A DNA stretch of 64,000 nt from a virus. Below are positions 9,862-63,618 of this stretch, one piece after another. The position numbers and the translations under genes were made by a program. Below the pieces are notes generated by a model. That model was not told the DNA's origin. It saw only the letters and a list, made by a program, of their open reading frames with translations, and made no database searches. The stretch is taken from the UHGV virus genome UHGV-0171999; one strand, written 5' to 3'. Within the stretch, counting starts at the first letter, position 1, and the number at the start of each line of letters is the position of its first letter.

Positions 9862-11145
9862 TTATTCATCGACGATAATTTTTGGTAGCTTAACACCTAA
9901 TAAAACAGACAAATCTGAACGACCCGCCATTTTATCCATGTCTCCACCATCAATTATTCTTGCTTCTTTTTCATCTTTTGCTACAGTGTAAGGATTTGCA
10001 GATAAAGCATATCTAACCAATAAACCGATAGATGGTTGTAAGCTTTCTGGATCAACTACAACTTTAAATGCACCTACATGTTCAGGGTCATCTAAGTCAA
10101 GACCTTCTGTATACGGAGCATAGAAAATTGATCCGACAATTTCTTTTTCACCGATATTTTCTACTACACCAACGATTACATAATCTAATGGGCTGTTAGT
10201 ATCGCAATAAAGCGGTAAGCCATTAGCTAAGAACCCATAGGCATTTTGTGAAAGATATTTGTCATCTTCTGGTTTATGTTTTAACCAACCTGATGCAGCA
10301 AGAATCGCAGCAGCACGAGCTGAAGCAACACAGAACGTTGCTGTATAAGTTGATTCTTTTTGGATATGCGAAACCATTTCACATACCATTCGGTATAATG
10401 AACGACCAGCTTCAGGTGCAGATGCATAACTCAAATCAATGAATCCAGTATCAGTAATTCCTGTAACTTTATAGCGTTTTGACACTGTAATCAAAGACTG
10501 TAGAATATCTTTATTGATTTCATCCGCCATTTCAGTTGCAAGCAAATCTTCCAAGAAATTAGGAGCATCGAATCCATTTGCTTCTAAATCTTGTGCTAAT
10601 TCAACTGTGATGCCAGTTTTAAGCTTACGAGATTTAACTGCGGTTTGCCATTTATTAATCTGGAATCTAGCATCCGCAATTTCACTATCAGAGCTTTCAA
10701 ATTTGCTTGTTGACGCTGCGTCAGAAAATAGACGAACCTTTAAAAGAACAATTGCAATCTGAAGAGCTAATTCTAAATCGCTTTCTTCAATGGTAGCAAA
10801 TGGTGTATCTTCTAATACTTTATAAACGATATTATTATATTTGAATAAATCGCCTTTATTGAGAGTTAATTTAGACTCTTCTGTTAATTCTGTGATTTGT
10901 TCTCGGTCTACATATCCAGCTTCGCCGGCGTAAGTAGCACCAGTTTTAAACGTAAATTCGTTATCTGGGTTAAGGTATTTGATACCATAAAAAGCAGCAA
11001 CAGGTTGATTAGTTCTTTGCGTTGCTACAATGTCAGAATATATTAATTTAGTGGTAGCGCGAGTCAAAGCAACGAGATTTGGGCGACCGATTGAGTTGCT
11101 ATTCGTTGTGGTTGATTCGCGCAGAAGTTCGTTGATTTTAGCCAT
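9862..11145 (-). CDS. 24: capsid vertex protein gp24
   Basis: 427 aa, ATG verified, paralog-like similarity to gp23, synteny. Confidence 0.9.
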   Translation of the reverse strand: MAKINELLRESTTTNSNSIGRPNLVALTRATTKLIYSDIVATQRTNQPVAAFYGIKYLNPDNEFTFKTGATYAGEAGYVDREQITELTEESKLTLNKGDLFKYNNIVYKVLEDTPFATIEESDLELALQIAIVLLKVRLFSDAASTSKFESSDSEIADARFQINKWQTAVKSRKLKTGITVELAQDLEANGFDAPNFLEDLLATEMADEINKDILQSLITVSKRYKVTGITDTGFIDLSYASAPEAGRSLYRMVCEMVSHIQKESTYTATFCVASARAAAILAASGWLKHKPEDDKYLSQNAYGFLANGLPLYCDTNSPLDYVIVGVVENIGEKEIVGSIFYAPYTEGLDLDDPEHVGAFKVVVDPESLQPSIGLLVRYALSANPYTVAKDEKEARIIDGGDMDKMAGRSDLSVLLGVKLPKIIVDE

Positions 11146-19234: not shown

Positions 19235-22375
<3,141 letters not shown>

Positions 22376-22416
22376 GATTTCTCCTAATCTGGGCTTTAAT
22401 TAGTTTATAATATTTA

Positions 22417-24118
<1,702 letters not shown>

Positions 24119-43228: not shown

Positions 43229-43258
43229 GTTTACACGTTGATGAGGTAGTGATACTAT
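43229..43258 (+). promoter_or_regulatory. T4-type early promoter upstream of ipI
   Basis: -35 GTTTAC at 43229-43234, 18 nt spacer, -10 TACTAT at 43253-43258. Confidence 0.6.
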
Positions 43259-43288
43259 TATCTCATCAAAATTAATTAGGAAAATAAA

Positions 43289-43575
43289 ATGAAAACTTTC
43301 AAAGAATTTACTTCTACAACTACCCCGGTTTCTACTATTACTGAAGCTACTCTTACTTCTGAAGTTATTAAAGCAAATAAAGGACGAGAAGGTAAACCAA
43401 TGATTAGTTTGGTTGATGGTGAAGAAATCAAAGGTACTGTTTACCTAGGCGATGGATGGTCTGCTAAAAGGATGGTGCTACAATCGTTATCTCTCCTGCT
43501 GAAGAAACTGCGTTGTTTAAAGCTAAACACATTTCTGCGGCACATCTCAAGATTATTGCTAAAAATCTTTTGTAA
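43289..43575 (+). pseudogene. ipI: internal protein I (IPI) gene interrupted by a 1-nt frameshift in an A-run
   Basis: N-terminal capsid targeting sequence MKTFKEFTSTTTPVSTITE; frame changes at 43466-43470 (AAAAG); the +2 frame continues ...DGATIVISPAEETALFKAKHISAAHLKIIAKNLL to TAA at 43573; restoring one A gives a 95-aa protein. Confidence 0.7.
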
Positions 43576-43593
43576 TAAATATTTCACAAAGTT

Positions 43594-43623
43594 GTTTACA
43601 TAGGGTTTTAGTTGTGATACTAT
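43594..43623 (+). promoter_or_regulatory. T4-type early promoter
   Basis: -35 GTTTAC at 43594-43599, 18 nt spacer, -10 TACTAT at 43618-43623. Confidence 0.6.
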
Positions 43624-43651
43624 TACCCTATCAACTACCGAGGAGAATAAA

Positions 43652-44606: not shown

Positions 44607-44679
44607 TGGGAATTAGCCAAGTTGGTAAGGCACTGGATTTTGATTCCAGGATGCAAAGGTTCGAGTCCTTTATTCCCAG
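44607..44679 (+). tRNA. tRNA-Gln (anticodon UUG), no encoded CCA
   Basis: Cloverleaf folded by hand: acceptor TGGGAAT/ATTCCCA, anticodon loop TTTTGAT, T-arm GGTTCGAGTCC. Confidence 0.8.
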
Positions 44680-44680
44680 C

Positions 44681-44767
44681 GCGAGAATGGTCAAATTGGT
44701 AAAGGCACAGCACTTAAAATGCTGCGGAATGATTTCCTTGTGGGTTCGAGTCCCACTTCTCGCACCA
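44681..44767 (+). tRNA. tRNA-Leu (anticodon UAA), long variable arm, CCA encoded
   Basis: Acceptor GCGAGAA/TTCTCGC, anticodon loop CTTAAAA, T-loop TTCGAGT, 3' ACCA. Confidence 0.8.
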
Positions 44768-44772
44768 AATTT

Positions 44773-44846
<74 letters not shown>

Positions 44847-44856
44847 ATTTAATTTA

Positions 44857-44931
44857 CTCCGTGTAGCTCAATGGCAGAGCGATCGCCTGTTAAGCGATTG
44901 GTTATAGGTTCGAATCCTATCACGTCCGCCA
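44857..44931 (+). tRNA. tRNA-like gene with anticodon GUU (Asn-type), acceptor stem only 4 of 7 bp paired
   Basis: D-arm GCTC-AATGGCA-GAGC, anticodon arm ATCGC-CTGTTAA-GCGAT, T-arm ATAGG-TTCGAAT-CCTAT, 3' GCCA; 5' CTCCGTG pairs poorly with 3' CACGTCC. Confidence 0.45.
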
Positions 44932-44935
44932 AATC

Positions 44936-45011
44936 CGAGGCATAGCTCAGAAGGAAGAGCAAGGACCTTCTAAGTCCTAGGTCGTAGGTTCGATCCCTAC
45001 TGCCTCGACCA
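44936..45011 (+). tRNA. tRNA-Arg (anticodon UCU), CCA encoded
   Basis: Acceptor CGAGGCA/TGCCTCG, anticodon loop CTTCTAA, T-loop TTCGATC. Confidence 0.8.
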
Positions 45012-45850: not shown

Positions 45851-45880
45851 GTTTACACCCCTGTTCTTCCATGGTACTAT
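45851..45880 (+). promoter_or_regulatory. T4-type early promoter
   Basis: -35 GTTTAC at 45851-45856, 18 nt spacer, -10 TACTAT at 45875-45880, preceded by A/T-rich UP-like tract. Confidence 0.6.
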
Positions 45881-45923
45881 ACAACTATCAACTACTGATA
45901 CAGAAAACAACTTGGAGAATGAA

Positions 45924-46187
45924 ATGGATAATTACGGCGAACTGTTCAACTTCTTTATGAAATGCGTTTCAGAAGATTTCGGTCGTACAGTGAATGATAT
46001 TAAAGTTATCGGTCCTGACCATCCGATGTTTGAAACTTACGCAGTAATGGGTAATGAAGATGGTCAGTGGTATACTGTAAAGGTTGTGATTAACATGTTC
46101 ACTGCTGAAGGTTATGTTAAACTGTCTTCTAAAGTTTACCATGATAACGACGAAATCGCAGAAGAATATTTCAATAATATGAAATAA
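45924..46187 (+). CDS. hypothetical protein
   Basis: 87 aa from ATG at 45924 with GGAG RBS; ORF-track start 45912 is TTG. Confidence 0.6.
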   Translation: MDNYGELFNFFMKCVSEDFGRTVNDIKVIGPDHPMFETYAVMGNEDGQWYTVKVVINMFTAEGYVKLSSKVYHDNDEIAEEYFNNMK

Positions 46188-46224
46188 GTTTACATAGGCT
46201 CATGATTGAGATATTATGAGCCTA
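46188..46224 (+). promoter_or_regulatory. early promoter embedded in a 9-bp stem-loop
   Basis: -35 GTTTAC at 46188-46193, -10 TATTAT at 46212-46217; hairpin TAGGCTCAT...ATGAGCCTA spans 46195-46224. Confidence 0.5.
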
Positions 46225-46291
46225 TAACTTGATGATAGAGTATAATACTACTTTTACGGATTTTAAATCTTAATCAACCTAAGGAAATACT

Positions 46292-49963: not shown

Positions 49964-49993
49964 GTTTACTTCCTCCAAGGACTTTGATACTAT
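49964..49993 (+). promoter_or_regulatory. T4-type early promoter of denV inside a 10-bp stem-loop
   Basis: -35 GTTTAC at 49964-49969, -10 TACTAT at 49988-49993; TTCCTCCAAG at 49970-49979 pairs with CTTGGAGGAA at 50007-50016 (includes the RBS). Confidence 0.6.
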
Positions 49994-50020
49994 ACATTCA
50001 TCAACTACTTGGAGGAAATT

Positions 50021-53517: not shown

Positions 53518-53547
53518 GTTTACTTTTCCTCTTGACTGTGGTATAAT
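53518..53547 (+). promoter_or_regulatory. T4-type early promoter of regB
   Basis: -35 GTTTAC at 53518-53523, 18 nt spacer, -10 TATAAT at 53542-53547; flanking TCCTCTT/AAGAGGA inverted repeat. Confidence 0.6.
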
Positions 53548-53574
53548 TTTTCTATCAGTTAAGAGGAGAATAAC

Positions 53575-54036
53575 ATGACTATCAACACAGAAGTTTTTAT
53601 CCGTCGAAATAAGCTCCGTCGTCACTTTGAGTCGGAGTTTCGTCAAATTAACAATGAGATTCGTGAGGCATCAAAAGCAGCAGGGGTCTCATCGTTTCAT
53701 CTAAAATATTCTCAACATCTTCTTGATCGTGCAATTCAACGGGAGATTGATGAGACATATGTTTTTGAATTATTCCATAAAATAAAAGACCATGTTTTAG
53801 AAGTTAATGAATTCCTGAGTATGCCTCCGCGTCCTGACATTGACGAGGATTTTATCGATGGGGTTGAATATCGTCCTGGGCGTTTAGAAATCACAGATGG
53901 AAATCTTTGGCTTGGATTTACAGTTTGTAAACCTAACGCGAAGTTCAAAGACCCGTCACTTCAATGTAGGATGGCCATTATCAACAGCCGTCGTTTACCA
54001 GGAAAGGCTTCTAAAGCAGTAATTAAAACTCAATGA
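53575..54036 (+). CDS. regB: RegB site-specific endoribonuclease
   Basis: 153 aa; length and position match T4 RegB. Confidence 0.85.
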   Translation: MTINTEVFIRRNKLRRHFESEFRQINNEIREASKAAGVSSFHLKYSQHLLDRAIQREIDETYVFELFHKIKDHVLEVNEFLSMPPRPDIDEDFIDGVEYRPGRLEITDGNLWLGFTVCKPNAKFKDPSLQCRMAIINSRRLPGKASKAVIKTQ

Positions 54037-54929: not shown

Positions 54930-55405
54930 TTGTAAAATATATCAAGGGCGATATTGTCGCCCTATTTCTTCAAGGTAATATTATTGCGCACGGGTGCAAT
55001 TGCTTCCACACAATGGGCTCTGGTGTAGCTGGTCAATTAGCAAGAGCCTATCCCAAAATTTTAGAAATAGATAAGACCACAACTGAATATGGTTCGCGTG
55101 AAAAACTCGGTGATATGTCTATTGTTTTTAGACATAAACCTAATGGTTTTGGTATATGCTATAACCTGTATACACAATACGAACCAGGTCCTAATCTTGA
55201 TTATGGTGCTTTAGTAAACTGCATGATAGAATTAAATCTACAGGCAGAAACCCTTTTGTTTAAACCAGTAATTTACATTCCACGCATAGGTTGTGGTATT
55301 GCTGGCGGTGATTGGGATAAGGTTTCTAAATTAATCGACATGTTTACTCCTGATATTGATTTAATAGTGGTGGATTATGAAAGTACATTACCCACATCCG
55401 TTTGA
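54926..55405 (+). CDS. macrodomain protein (OARD1/TARG1-like ADP-ribose processing fold)
   Basis: 159 aa; motifs IKGDIV, HGCNCFHTMGSGVAGQL, GCGIAGGDW resemble the macro ADP-ribose binding site. Confidence 0.65.
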   Translation: MIVKYIKGDIVALFLQGNIIAHGCNCFHTMGSGVAGQLARAYPKILEIDKTTTEYGSREKLGDMSIVFRHKPNGFGICYNLYTQYEPGPNLDYGALVNCMIELNLQAETLLFKPVIYIPRIGCGIAGGDWDKVSKLIDMFTPDIDLIVVDYESTLPTSV

Positions 55406-57679: not shown

Positions 57680-57684
57680 CATTA

Positions 57685-57706
57685 GTCTCCTTCGGGAGAC
57701 TTTTTT
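57685..57706 (+). terminator. rho-independent terminator
   Basis: GTCTCC-TTCG-GGAGAC hairpin followed by TTTTTT. Confidence 0.7.
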
Positions 57707-57716
57707 CATTTTACCG

Positions 57717-57746
57717 GTTTACTTTCCATTTGAGCTGTGATACTAT
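57717..57746 (+). promoter_or_regulatory. T4-type early promoter
   Basis: -35 GTTTAC at 57717-57722, 18 nt spacer, -10 TACTAT at 57741-57746. Confidence 0.6.
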
Positions 57747-57774
57747 ACAACCATCGGATAAAGAGGAGAACATC

Positions 57775-58518: not shown

Positions 58519-58549
58519 GTTTACAAGTTGGCAAGGTTATGGTATAGTA
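58519..58549 (+). promoter_or_regulatory. T4-type early promoter
   Basis: -35 GTTTAC at 58519-58524, 19 nt spacer, -10 TATAGT at 58544-58549. Confidence 0.5.
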
Positions 58550-58576
58550 ATCTTGTCAACTGCCAAGGAGAAGAGA

Positions 58577-60070: not shown

Positions 60071-60532
60071 ATGATTATTAATGAAAGCTCTTGGCACTAT
60101 AAATTATTCAAAATGTTTAACGACGAATGGAAACGACCTAAGACACTGTGCGCGTATTTTTGGTCTATTGTTATCCCTACATTTTTCGTTTCTTTTTTCG
60201 GATGTACTATACTCGCAGGTCTAACTATCATCTGTGCAGAAATCATGCAGAAATGGCTTATTTTTGGTAGTTTATGGACTCTTATTCCAGCAGCATTTAT
60301 ACTTGCCATTTTGCTTGTTTTACTTATTATTGGTTCATTTGTTATTCCTGCACAACTACATGAAAAATATAAAGATTATAAATGGAAAAAGGATTATGCT
60401 TTACATGTAGAAAATATTGATAGGGCGTATAAAGGTTTACCTCCTATTCAACCCAAGAAATCTATTATCATCGAATTTTTAAAAGCGTGTAAAGCTAAAG
60501 TATGTCCTGTTATTGAATATAAGGCTGAATAA
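60071..60532 (+). CDS. membrane protein
   Basis: 153 aa; two long hydrophobic segments; AAGGA RBS. Confidence 0.6.
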   Translation: MIINESSWHYKLFKMFNDEWKRPKTLCAYFWSIVIPTFFVSFFGCTILAGLTIICAEIMQKWLIFGSLWTLIPAAFILAILLVLLIIGSFVIPAQLHEKYKDYKWKKDYALHVENIDRAYKGLPPIQPKKSIIIEFLKACKAKVCPVIEYKAE

Positions 60533-61542
60533 TGAAAACAGTAATGAAAAGTTATTTTGGTAGTCATCTTTATGGAACTTCTACCCCAGAATCTGATGTA
60601 GATTTTAAAGAAATTTTTGTTCCTCCTGCTCGTGATATTCTTATCGGAAATGTTAAAGAGCATATGAGTAAAAACACTAACAACACATCATCTAAAAACA
60701 CTAAAGATGATATTGACCATGAACTATATAGTCTTAAGTATTTCTTTAAATTAGCAGCAGATGGTGAAACTGTAGCATTAGATATGCTCCACACTCCACC
60801 TGCACTAGTGGTTAAATCTGATTTGCCTGATGTGTGGAAGTTTATTCAAGACAACCGTTCTCGTTTTTATACAACTAACATGAAATCCTATTTAGGATAT
60901 GTCCGTAAGCAAGCTTCTAAATATGGCGTTAAGGGTTCTCGTTTGGCTGCATTACGTGATGTATTGAAAGTAGTTAATCAAATCCCTGAGCAATGGGTTG
61001 ATTACCAAGAAGATGGTTCTATTAAACAGCGTCGCACTAAAGTTGAAGATATTAAGCATCGTCTTCCAGAGAACGAGTTCTGCGAATGGGTGTTCCATAA
61101 TCATGAGAAAACAGGTCCGCAAACGTTCTATACAGTGTTGGGTCGTAAATATCAGACAACGCTTTCTCTTATTGAGCTTAAGCAGTCACTGAACAAATTA
61201 GATGCTGAATACGGCGAACGTGCTCGTAAGGCCGAAGCTAATGAAGGTATTGACTGGAAAGCTCTGAGCCATGCTTGCCGTGGTGGACTCCAACTATTGG
61301 AAATTTACAAAACTGGTGACTTGGTTTATCCACTCCAAGATGCTCCATTTATTCTCGATGTGAAGTTGGGTAAACACCCATTTAAAACGGTCCAAGAGTT
61401 TTTGGAAGATGTGGTCGATCAAGTAGAAGCAGCATCTACTGAAGCTTCTAAGAACGGTATGCAGCAAAAAGTGGACATGGGTTTCTGGGATGACTTCCTT
61501 GAGAGGGTGTATCTCGAAAACCATCGAAGTTATTATAAATGA
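60532..61542 (+). CDS. nucleotidyltransferase-fold protein (minimal NTase motif)
   Basis: 336 aa; N-terminal GSHLYGTSTPESDVD fits the G[GS]x(9-13)DhD nucleotidyltransferase signature. Confidence 0.6.
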   Translation: MKTVMKSYFGSHLYGTSTPESDVDFKEIFVPPARDILIGNVKEHMSKNTNNTSSKNTKDDIDHELYSLKYFFKLAADGETVALDMLHTPPALVVKSDLPDVWKFIQDNRSRFYTTNMKSYLGYVRKQASKYGVKGSRLAALRDVLKVVNQIPEQWVDYQEDGSIKQRRTKVEDIKHRLPENEFCEWVFHNHEKTGPQTFYTVLGRKYQTTLSLIELKQSLNKLDAEYGERARKAEANEGIDWKALSHACRGGLQLLEIYKTGDLVYPLQDAPFILDVKLGKHPFKTVQEFLEDVVDQVEAASTEASKNGMQQKVDMGFWDDFLERVYLENHRSYYK

Positions 61543-61544
61543 TA

Positions 61545-61568
61545 GGGAGCCTTCGGGCTCCCTTTTTT
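61545..61568 (+). terminator. rho-independent terminator
   Basis: GGGAGCC-TTCG-GGCTCCC hairpin followed by TTTTTT. Confidence 0.7.
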
Positions 61569-61593
61569 ATTTCAAAATTTTTTTCACAAAACA

Positions 61594-61623
61594 GTTTACA
61601 AGCATAAAGCTTTATGGTACTAT
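61594..61623 (+). promoter_or_regulatory. T4-type early promoter
   Basis: -35 GTTTAC at 61594-61599, 18 nt spacer, -10 TACTAT at 61618-61623. Confidence 0.6.
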
Positions 61624-61657
61624 ACAACTATCAACTGATACGGATTTGGAGAATAAA

Positions 61658-62626
61658 ATGAAAACTGTAACTATCAATAAGGGTATCTACTTCGGTAAAG
61701 AAATCTCTGGAACTTTTGAGCTCTTAGGCGAATGGTTCCCAGATAATGCTCCGGTAGATGCACAAGGAGATGGTAAAGTTTTTGTTGAAATTGACGGTAA
61801 ACGTCGCGGTGTTTGGGTTTACAAATCAGATATTTCATATGATGGTGTAAAAGTTGAAGAAGTTAAAGAATCATATGAAGATATGAAAACCCGCATTAAT
61901 AAAAGATTTAATGTTATGGGAATGATGACGAATGGTATTATTAACGGAAACATTCGTTCATTAATTATCTCTGGCGCAGCAGGTATTGGTAAAACGTATT
62001 CTTTAGATAAAGCTTTAAATAAAGCAAATGATATTGGATACATTGAATATAAAAGCATTAATGGTAAAATCTCTGGTATTGGTCTTTATGAGCAGCTTTG
62101 GAATAATCGTGAAGAGAATTCTGTCCTTTTGATTGATGATGTGGATGTTTTTTCTGATATGGACATTCTTAATCTTCTAAAAGCCGCTCTGGACACCGGA
62201 GAGACCCGTAAAGTATGCTGGAGCACTGCATCTTCCTACTTAGAAGAAAAAGGTATTGACCGTGAGTTTGAATTTAAAGGAACGATTGTTTTTATCACAA
62301 ACGTTGACATTGACCGCGAATTAGACCGTGGTACTAAACTTGCTCCACACTTACAAGCATTAGTGTCCCGCTCAGTTTATTTGGATTTGGGTGTTCATAC
62401 TAATGAAGAAATTATGGTCAGGGTTGAAGATGTTATTCTTTCAACTGACATGATGCAAAAGCGCGGTCTTTCTGATGAAGAAACTTATAAAGCATTATCA
62501 TGGATGAAAGTTAATGTAAACCGTTTACGCAATGTTTCACTGCGTACTGCTCTTTATCTTGCTGACTTTATTATGACCGACAAAAACGGTTGGGAAGAAA
62601 TTGCTGAGGTTACTCTTCTGAAATAA
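61658..62626 (+). CDS. AAA+ ATPase-like protein
   Basis: 322 aa from ATG at 61658 with GGAG RBS; Walker A GAAGIGKT and Walker B LLIDDVD; ORF-track start 61490 runs through the terminator and promoter. Confidence 0.6.
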   Translation: MKTVTINKGIYFGKEISGTFELLGEWFPDNAPVDAQGDGKVFVEIDGKRRGVWVYKSDISYDGVKVEEVKESYEDMKTRINKRFNVMGMMTNGIINGNIRSLIISGAAGIGKTYSLDKALNKANDIGYIEYKSINGKISGIGLYEQLWNNREENSVLLIDDVDVFSDMDILNLLKAALDTGETRKVCWSTASSYLEEKGIDREFEFKGTIVFITNVDIDRELDRGTKLAPHLQALVSRSVYLDLGVHTNEEIMVRVEDVILSTDMMQKRGLSDEETYKALSWMKVNVNRLRNVSLRTALYLADFIMTDKNGWEEIAEVTLLK

Positions 62627-62727
62627 TTCATAAGAGGACTTCTATGACAAAAAGGCAGTTCAGAAATAGATTATATGGACTGCCATTAAAAAGATGACTA
62701 GAATTAAACTGGTGAATGGAGGTAGTG

Positions 62728-63032: not shown

Positions 63033-63062
63033 GTTTACAAGACTGTTCCTCTGTGGTACTAT
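63033..63062 (+). promoter_or_regulatory. T4-type early promoter inside a stem-loop
   Basis: -35 GTTTAC at 63033-63038, -10 TACTAT at 63057-63062; CTGTTCCTC at 63044-63052 pairs with GAGGAACAG at 63070-63078 (RBS in 3' arm). Confidence 0.6.
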
Positions 63063-63090
63063 ACAACTATCAACTACGGAGGAACAGAAA

Positions 63091-63618
63091 ATGAACGCTA
63101 AAGATATTTTCAACTTGGTAAATTACAACGATGGTAAATTTAAATCTGAAGCACAAAGCAAGTTCTTTAATGACATCTCAATCGGAGGTGAAATCACTGT
63201 TGATGGAGGACAAATTTACAAATCACGTTGGAATTGGATCGTTATTATCGATGAGATTGGTATTGTAGAAATTTACAAGAATACGAATAAAAATCGTACA
63301 TTACACTGGTCTCGTGATACTAACGAACAGTATAAAAAGGATAAAGCATCTAAATTATCTCGTGTAACTCAAGAAGATATTGAGTTCATCAAGAAAGATA
63401 TTTTAATGTATGATAACTTAATTGCTGAAGAGCAAGCTGTTATTGATAAATTTGATGAGATTAAAGCTTCTCGTGAAATTCCTGATTTTATGAAAGAATC
63501 AGTAAATGAACGATACACTCTCATTTCAGAGCGTATTGAAACTTACAAAAAGCAAAGAGCTGAACGCCAAAATACTCTTCGGAAGTTTGAAGAACGGTTA
63601 AAGACGGTACTCGCATAA
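63091..63618 (+). CDS. hypothetical protein
   Basis: 175 aa; GGAGG RBS. Confidence 0.55.
   Translation: MNAKDIFNLVNYNDGKFKSEAQSKFFNDISIGGEITVDGGQIYKSRWNWIVIIDEIGIVEIYKNTNKNRTLHWSRDTNEQYKKDKASKLSRVTQEDIEFIKKDILMYDNLIAEEQAVIDKFDEIKASREIPDFMKESVNERYTLISERIETYKKQRAERQNTLRKFEERLKTVLA

Follow-up and report, generated by a model that had tools for sequence, protein, structure and literature searches.

Introduction

Promoter-early stem-loop cassettes (PeSLs) have been described in T4-like phages (Arbiol 2010, PMC2839356; Comeau, Arbiol & Krisch 2014, PMC4122927). For the PeSLs of RB49 and phi1, promoter activity, terminator activity and the formation of mini-circles were shown (Arbiol 2010, PMC2839356). 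PeSLs were extended to the T4/PST pair, where the consensus is TTTACW-N17-TAYWAT, and PeSL-mediated exchange was proposed for ndd.4/.5 (Comeau 2014, PMC4122927). T4 early promoters carry consensus regions beyond the UP, -35, TGn and -10 elements (Hinton 2010, PMC2988021), and a consensus for these promoters was used by Nolan et al. 2006 (PMC1524935). The morons of lambdoid phages are thought to enter by illegitimate recombination and are often antisense and of deviant GC (Hendrix 2000, as cited in PMC2839356). At T4 e, soc, 49 and I-TevI, which have late promoters, hairpins sequester the ribosome-binding site (Uzan & Miller 2010, PMC3014915).

Here, we analyzed a stretch of 64,000 nucleotides from the virus genome UHGV-0171999 (the window), with emphasis on the gap between its nrdC.11 and nrdC.10 homologues. 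Very probably, an early sigma-70 promoter lies there after the nrdC.11 terminator, with a 21-bp block as its reused core, and PeSL-type crossovers swap cassettes at this site.

Anatomy of the nrdC.11/nrdC.10 cassette

The window belongs to a Tequatrovirus and is ~97% identical to Shfl2 and ECML-123-2. Over the segment 60500-64000, the identity to numerous T4-like coliphages and Shigella phages, among them ECML-123-2 and Shfl2, is 97-98%, and the annotation of the matches runs from nrdC.7 to nrdC.11. Since the window is inverted relative to GenBank T4, the early genes lie on the + strand, at about 42-64 kb. A search of the window against Rfam matched tRNA families and no other family. The features of the cassette and its neighbors are as follows.

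60532..61542, + strand: nrdC.11 homologue, 336 aa, nucleotidyltransferase-like, the gene 5' of the cassette (from the ORF list)
61544..61569, + strand: predicted intrinsic terminator, stem AGGGAGCC/GGCTCCCT with a UUCG loop (61544-61563), then a T6 run
61570..61593, + strand: UP-element-like A/T-rich tract, ATTTCAAAATTTTTTTCACAAAACA
61594..61599, + strand: -35 element GTTTAC, of T4 type; TTTACA (61595-61600) lies 17 bp from the -10
61600..61614, + strand: promoter-specific 15-nt spacer, AAGCATAAAGCTTTA, holding most of the palindrome ATAAAGCTTTAT (61604-61615)
61616..61636, + strand: 21-bp block, GGTACTATACAACTATCAACT, predicted positions -14 to +7
61648..61660, + strand: Shine-Dalgarno sequence (SD) GGAG (61648-61651) and nrdC.10 start codon ATG (61658-61660)
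61658..62626, + strand: nrdC.10 homologue, 322 aa, the gene placed under the cassette promoter (from the ORF list and the relatives' annotation)

The matches of the upstream gene in relatives are annotated as nrdC.11 or nucleotidyltransferase, and its length equals that of T4 nrdC.11. Directly after its stop codon starts the hairpin 61544-61563, with a stem of 8 bp, a dG of -17.7 kcal/mol and a z of -3.67 (terminator scan and RNA fold); the records of G2540 and wV7 annotate a terminator at the site orthologous to 61544-61569. The following tract provides A/T-rich, UP-element-like sequence from -40 to -60. Its TTTTTCACAAAAC part is common to the e.8 promoter and several T4 early promoters, and its TTTTCACAAAAC motif was found at many T4 early promoters. 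The promoter fits the T4/PST consensus of Comeau et al. (PMC4122927) as TTTACA-N17-TACTAT. Moreover, its spacer AAGCATAAAGCTTTA is kept in orthologues and has an identical copy in the T4 frd.3 promoter.

The extended -10 consists of TGG at 61615-61617 and the hexamer TACTAT at 61618-61623. From the spacing, transcription is predicted to start at the A at 61630, 7 bases after the hexamer, which places the block at -14 to +7. The block thus comprises the second and third bases of TGn, TACTAT, the discriminator ACAACT, the predicted start and AUCAACU. The downstream ATG agrees with the annotated nrdC.10 starts in the aligned relatives.

The promoter lies on the early strand, 5' of and co-oriented with nrdC.10, and is orthologous to a T4 early promoter at about 55.36 kb on the early strand, from which it shows no difference of substance. 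Indeed, from -60 to the ATG the window and T4 differ twice only, both times in the UP tract: by a C-to-A change before GTTTAC and by a T-run one base shorter. GTTTAC as -35, TGn, TAnnAT as -10, an A-rich UP tract and further conserved positions are all shared with T4 early promoters. Judged by its sequence, 61544-61660 is an ordinary terminator plus early promoter unit of a T4-type phage; the terminator of nrdC.11 is followed by the early promoter of nrdC.10, as in T4. A first-pass annotation of the window had called the unit a terminator plus early promoter cassette.

The cassette also resembles PeSLs in combining a stem-loop/terminator, an A/T-rich tract, a sigma-70-type early promoter and an SD-ATG, all intergenic, and in its position in a hyperplastic region 5' of small genes of unknown function. 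All the PeSL features that can be read from sequence were found: a stem-loop beside the promoter, an SD-ATG at the 3' end and a hyperplastic site. It differs from PeSLs whose stem-loop overlaps the -10 in having a canonical intrinsic terminator 5' of the UP tract (one of five PeSL sub-classes). Mini-circles have been demonstrated for the RB49 and phi1 PeSLs only.

Copies of the 21-bp block in the window

The block GGTACTATACAACTATCAACT occurs exactly at 45873-45893, 61616-61636 and 63055-63075, always on the + strand, and no further match with up to 3 mismatches was found in the window. In 100 shuffles, the chance expectation was 0. As the first-pass annotation had noted, an A/T-rich tract and a GTTTAC precede each of the 3 copies; the GTTTAC lies 18 nt upstream. 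The other early promoter units considered are listed below.

45851..45893, + strand: e.8 early promoter, GTTTAC at 45851-45856, block copy at 45873-45893
63033..63075, + strand: nrdC.8 early promoter, GTTTAC at 63033-63038, block copy at 63055-63075
49964..50006, + strand: denV early promoter, with a 4-mismatch relative of the block at 49986-50006
57684..57759, + strand: second terminator plus early promoter unit, GTTTAC at 57717, with a 5-mismatch relative of the block at 57739-57759

The e.8 promoter precedes the e.8 coding sequence at 45924-46187, and its T4 orthologue has its -10 at 70672; the nrdC.8 promoter precedes the nrdC.8 coding sequence at 63091-63618, with the -10 of the T4 orthologue at 53919. 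The sites at 49986-50006 and 57739-57759 had been counted as close variants of the block. With 4 and 5 mismatches out of 21, respectively, they are other early promoters rather than block copies. The second of them has the layout of the nrdC.11/nrdC.10 cassette, with a hairpin at 57684-57701 (AGTCTCC-TTCG-GGAGACT) followed by a T run.

The three units had also been called near-identical over 40-50 bp, which proved too long: the exact repeats between the copies measure 22-24 bp, since the spacers are unrelated. Pairwise, the spacers agree at between 5 and 9 of their 15 positions. In the UP tract, only the e.8 and nrdC.10 promoters are alike (20/26), and the likeness ends downstream of +7, where the three copies agree at 4-9 of the following 20 positions. 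Paralogous downstream genes were rejected as the source of the repeat because the similarity stops at +7; these genes are unrelated to each other.

The pattern GTTTAC-N18-TAnnnT was found at 11 sites in the window against 0.86 expected, all of them on the + strand (43.2-63.1 kb), and each just 5' of an ORF. All five sites discussed above (the 3 copies and the 2 supposed variants) belong to this set. A generic sigma-70 scan told little in a genome so rich in A/T, giving 82 hits where 76.8 were expected; unlike that scan, the T4-specific pattern discriminates here.

The block as a repeated module of T4 early promoters

We then scanned T4 with the same pattern (coordinates 1-76000 and 119000-168903, early strand). 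This gave 37 early-type sites, 6 of which carry the exact block; the -10 of each starts at the following T4 coordinate.

27056, early strand: imm.1
53919, early strand: nrdC.8
55360, early strand: nrdC.10
70672, early strand: e.8
163649, early strand: motA
167062, early strand: ndd.6

T4 thus carries the exact block at the promoters orthologous to the three of the window (nrdC.8, nrdC.10 and e.8) and at three more. The ndd.4/.5 locus adjoins one of the six copies. The remaining T4 early-type sites show 3-14 differences from the block. In IMG/VR, single contigs of roughly 170 kb have as many as six block copies. In the excerpts of PMC2839356 and PMC4122927 that we used, neither the exact 21-bp core nor its six-fold repetition in T4 is singled out.

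The first-pass annotation had itself raised the possibility that the shared block might be nothing beyond the usual consensus of T4 early promoters. If the columns are taken as independent, ~5e-4 exact copies are expected among the 37 T4 sites (1e-5 when the copies are excluded from the estimate), against 6 observed. Hence the consensus does not by itself explain the block, which is a module used repeatedly. The consensus of the remaining T4 sites, GATATAATAATCCTATCAAAT, agrees with the block at 14 of 21 positions. On the sequences compared, TGn, TAnnAT and CTATCAA are general early-promoter features, whereas the exact block is a repeated module.

These general features bear on the idea that the three copies arose by independent convergence on an optimal early consensus, through selection for promoter strength and with neither common descent nor exchange. 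The 14 of 21 positions shared with the consensus would fit such convergence, and so would the conservation of TGn, TAnnAT and CTATCAA in a Mosigvirus and the published description of extra consensus regions in T4 early promoters (PMC2988021). Convergence would have to produce six exact copies against the expectation given above, and it would have to do so at weakly constrained positions that are fully linked in the copies (-13 G, 0.51; -10 C, 0.43; -5 C, 0.24; -4/-3 A, about 0.44). Moreover, other strong promoters have different cores, such as TATAAT with its own continuation, and in VIPECOOM02 the core of the nrdC.8 promoter was replaced as a whole patch by another common core, GGTATTATTACCCTATCAACT, with the flanks unchanged. 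We consider independent convergence unlikely.

Other T4 early promoters share parts of their sequence in different combinations. The nrdC.10 promoter agrees with that of frd.3 in UP tract, -35, spacer and core, that of imm.1 has its leader in common with that of ndd.6, and the spacer aagactgttcttcc was found at both imm.1 and ndd.4. Read as sequence, this shows T4 early promoters to be mosaics in which UP tract, spacer, core and leader are reusable modules, one core being used six times.

Long duplications were also seen in T4 (AF158101). About 65 nt around the -10s at 55360 (nrdC.10) and 146851 (frd.3) are nearly identical although the sites lie 91 kb apart, and the promoters at 123069 and 136312 form a similar long duplicate pair.

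CTATCAA surrounds +1 in most early promoters of Tequatrovirus and of a Mosigvirus. One could suppose that the segment from -6 to +7 (ACAACTATCAACT) is a cis-element of its own or a functional 5' leader (AUCAACU) marking a co-regulated immediate-early subset, for instance as the operator of a factor from phage or host (e.g., in early-promoter shut-off) or through a preference of the Alt-modified polymerase. This we hold to be very improbable. It would accord with the wide occurrence of CTATCAA, with the fact that the exact block marks six T4 promoters, motA's among them, and with reviews according to which early shut-off is not understood. Against it, no factor is known to bind there, a pyrimidine at -1, a purine at +1 and an A/T-rich discriminator would be required of any strong sigma-70 promoter, and the six genes show no independent sign of a co-regulation distinct from that of other early genes. 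A broader version, in which the -14 to +7 core marks a distinct immediate-early class (T4 motA, imm.1, ndd.6, e.8, nrdC.8 and nrdC.10) and -6 to +7 is read by something other than sigma-70, is likewise quite improbable; the candidate readers of ACAACTATCAACT, or of its CTATCAA, would be the T4 early shut-off factor or the Alt-modified polymerase.

Alleles and junctions in relatives

The first-pass annotation had proposed that the shared units are substrates for homologous recombination and modular exchange. We compared the homologous 22-kb early region of nine relatives and T4, together with a shorter segment of G2540, by chained blastn. Breakpoint clusters were defined by indels or replacements of at least 40 bp, and a promoter unit as -60 to +45 around the -10. 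We observed 10 of 39 clusters in promoter units, which occupy 5.2% of 22.5 kb (binomial P about 1e-4); the position of three clusters is precisely the 5' edge of GTTTAC. Selection against the interruption of genes could explain part of the enrichment, since most sizeable intergenic gaps hold a promoter. The fine structure of the junctions therefore weighs more than the enrichment.

At the nrdC.11/nrdC.10 gap, at least five alleles were found in ten relatives, with junctions at the terminator tail/UP element, the -35 hexamer, CTATCAA around +1 and the SD-ATG.

Window, T4, T6, wV7 and VIPECOOM02: empty allele
G2540 and F1: two-ORF insert, left junction directly after CTATCAA
EcNP1: insert of the G2540/F1 type joined within SD-ATGAAAAC; UP tract that of the N2 cassette
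N2: complete cassette of promoter, ORF and terminator, inserted at the T-run of the terminator
AndreasVesalius: 66-aa ORF (orfZ) with its own promoter, departing from the common sequence at GTTTAC
phiD1: orfZ behind a chimeric promoter, with nrdC.10 spacer and -10 and orfZ leader, the switch lying within CTATCAA

Thus, as at PeSLs, close relatives differ at this unit by insertions, deletions and replacements. The two-ORF insert of G2540 and F1 closes with a promoter of its own, GTTTACA..TGATACTATTACCCTATCAAAAC. Because EcNP1 shares its UP tract with N2, its allele looks like the N2-type arrangement after a crossover at CACAAA..GTTTAC that deleted the cassette. The orfZ cassette was also found in the Mosigvirus p000y, at another locus. 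Its DNA is 93.8% identical over 357 nt (p000y 10003-10357 against AndreasVesalius 22109-22463, coordinates in the fetched segments) and its protein at 65 of 66 residues, compared with about 80% identity between Tequatrovirus and Mosigvirus genomes otherwise; the homology extends from the UP tract to the SD-ATG of the next gene.

The N2 allele resembles morons in being a self-contained promoter-ORF-terminator unit between two genes. Unlike morons, the cassettes are co-oriented, and their junctions lie in regulatory segments common to donor and recipient.

To look for exchange between block copies themselves, we built six synthetic chimeric queries, each joining the 5' flank of one copy to the 3' flank of another. 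Of these, the two queries of the 61616/63055 pair were searched against 50,697 phage records. Neither of the two junctions (the nrdC.10-nrdC.9 deletion and its reciprocal) was found at 80% query coverage or more; 0 of 615 and 0 of 510 partially matching records, respectively, reached it. Partial chimeras in ECp13 and teqskov, which extend about 22 nt into the "wrong" spacer, were rejected; they are ordinary orthologues in which the extension comes from the shared GTTTACAAG. In the ten relatives, the e.8 and nrdC.8 block copies have no indel junction, and only the nrdC.10 copy lies at a hotspot.

The proposed role in modular exchange is therefore supported for promoter units generally and for this cassette, given its alleles, the chimeric promoters, orfZ at two loci and the 10 of 39 clusters. 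This support is qualified in three ways: the junctions are spread over several sub-elements and not specific to the 21-mer, the repeats do not exceed 22-24 bp, and neither junction of the 61616/63055 pair occurs in any sequenced phage record searched.

The anatomy of the cassette, its identity with T4, a repetition of the block that is not random and the sub-element junctions in relatives are consistent with the following mechanism, from predicted promoter and terminator activity and start site to a putative recombination pathway. Host sigma-70 RNA polymerase would read an early promoter set directly behind the nrdC.11 terminator, and this position would make nrdC.10 and the downstream genes a unit insulated from upstream transcription. 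The block would act as the promoter core (extended -10, TACTAT, discriminator, start and first 7 transcribed bases), a module apparently reused three times in the window and six times in T4 in a mosaic with different UP tracts, spacers and leaders. Since early units carry T-run/UP, GTTTAC, TGnTAYWAT, CTATCAA and GGAG-N-ATGAAA in the same order and orientation, occasional crossovers would occur within them. The very active recombination system of the phage would perform these crossovers inside early promoter units, and they would insert, delete or swap promoter-plus-ORF cassettes or replace promoter patches while leaving the genes intact.

The interpretation given in the first-pass annotation is essentially the published PeSL model: real, mostly right and already known. 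As a discovery it is limited, since the promoter, its class and terminator-promoter recombination seams are all published. What is gained is a worked example, a single gap with five alleles whose junctions are mapped to named promoter sub-elements. Possible uses are the annotation of the Tequatrovirus pan-genome, the choice of safe insertion sites for engineering T4-like phages and the design of experiments on early-promoter strength and shut-off.

Three further variable sites were observed in the window. At 62607-62633, between nrdC.10 and nrdC.9 and away from any promoter unit, an insert of 722 bp that codes for a homing or DNA endonuclease was seen in T6, N2 and VIPECOOM02. In the internal-protein gene at 43289-43603, the replacement in relatives starts 8-12 codons into the ORF (breakpoints 43310-43323), which would agree with the shuffling at a conserved N-terminal targeting sequence known from T-even internal-protein loci. 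The tRNA cluster at 44607-45011 has shrunk to the genes for Gln, Leu, Gly and Arg. At about 44857-44930 it contains a tRNA-like hybrid, which combines the T4 tRNA-Pro 5' end with an anticodon arm like that of Asn and received no ARAGORN call and a truncated match by Rfam; the breakpoint cluster at 44851-44901 suggests a deletion via recombination between tRNA genes.

Inverted repeats at early promoters

At 6 of the 11 window promoters, the spacer forms a significant inverted repeat with sequence 3' of the -10. At four promoters the -10 lies in the loop of such a repeat (promoter 43253, repeat 43229-43272; 43618, 43594-43635; 46212, 46188-46228; 58543, 58519-58562). The repeats flanking the -10 are perfect over 7-8 bp, and over up to 13 bp in T4 orthologues; they are probably the PeSL sub-class "stem-loop overlapping the -10".

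At other promoters the spacer is reverse-complementary to the downstream SD, namely at nrdC.8 (63043-63051 with 63079-63087), at denV (49970-49979 with 50008-50017), at regB (53518-53575) and possibly at e.8 (45851-45926). In folding predictions for the transcript starting at +1, the SD was open at nrdC.8, regB and e.8 (0.77-0.89) and already largely paired at denV (0.37). In read-through RNA, it was predicted to be closed at nrdC.8, denV, regB and e.8 (0.00-0.04). As the 3' arm covers the SD, only transcripts from the proximal promoter should be translated under this model.

As a side observation, this arrangement resembles that at e, soc, 49 and I-TevI, in which an inverted repeat encloses the promoter and extends over the SD with its 3' arm. 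It differs in that the promoters here (nrdC.8, denV, regB and possibly e.8) are early ones. The SD mask is absent from the nrdC.10 cassette, as it is from the other promoter with an upstream terminator (61618 and 57741). A further reading, likewise quite improbable, is that early units are built for cassette autonomy, either by an upstream terminator (nrdC.10, 57741) or by a spacer-to-SD hairpin (nrdC.8, denV, regB); if this is true, the hairpin would silence the translation of read-through RNA at the latter three.

Among Tequatroviruses, we found no covariation in the nrdC.8 spacer/SD hairpin. All four combinations of its 2 variable outer pairs occur, which gives no support to the hairpin beyond its invariant 7-bp core. 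At the regB promoter, both arms differ from those of the Mosigvirus counterpart and the complementarity is kept.
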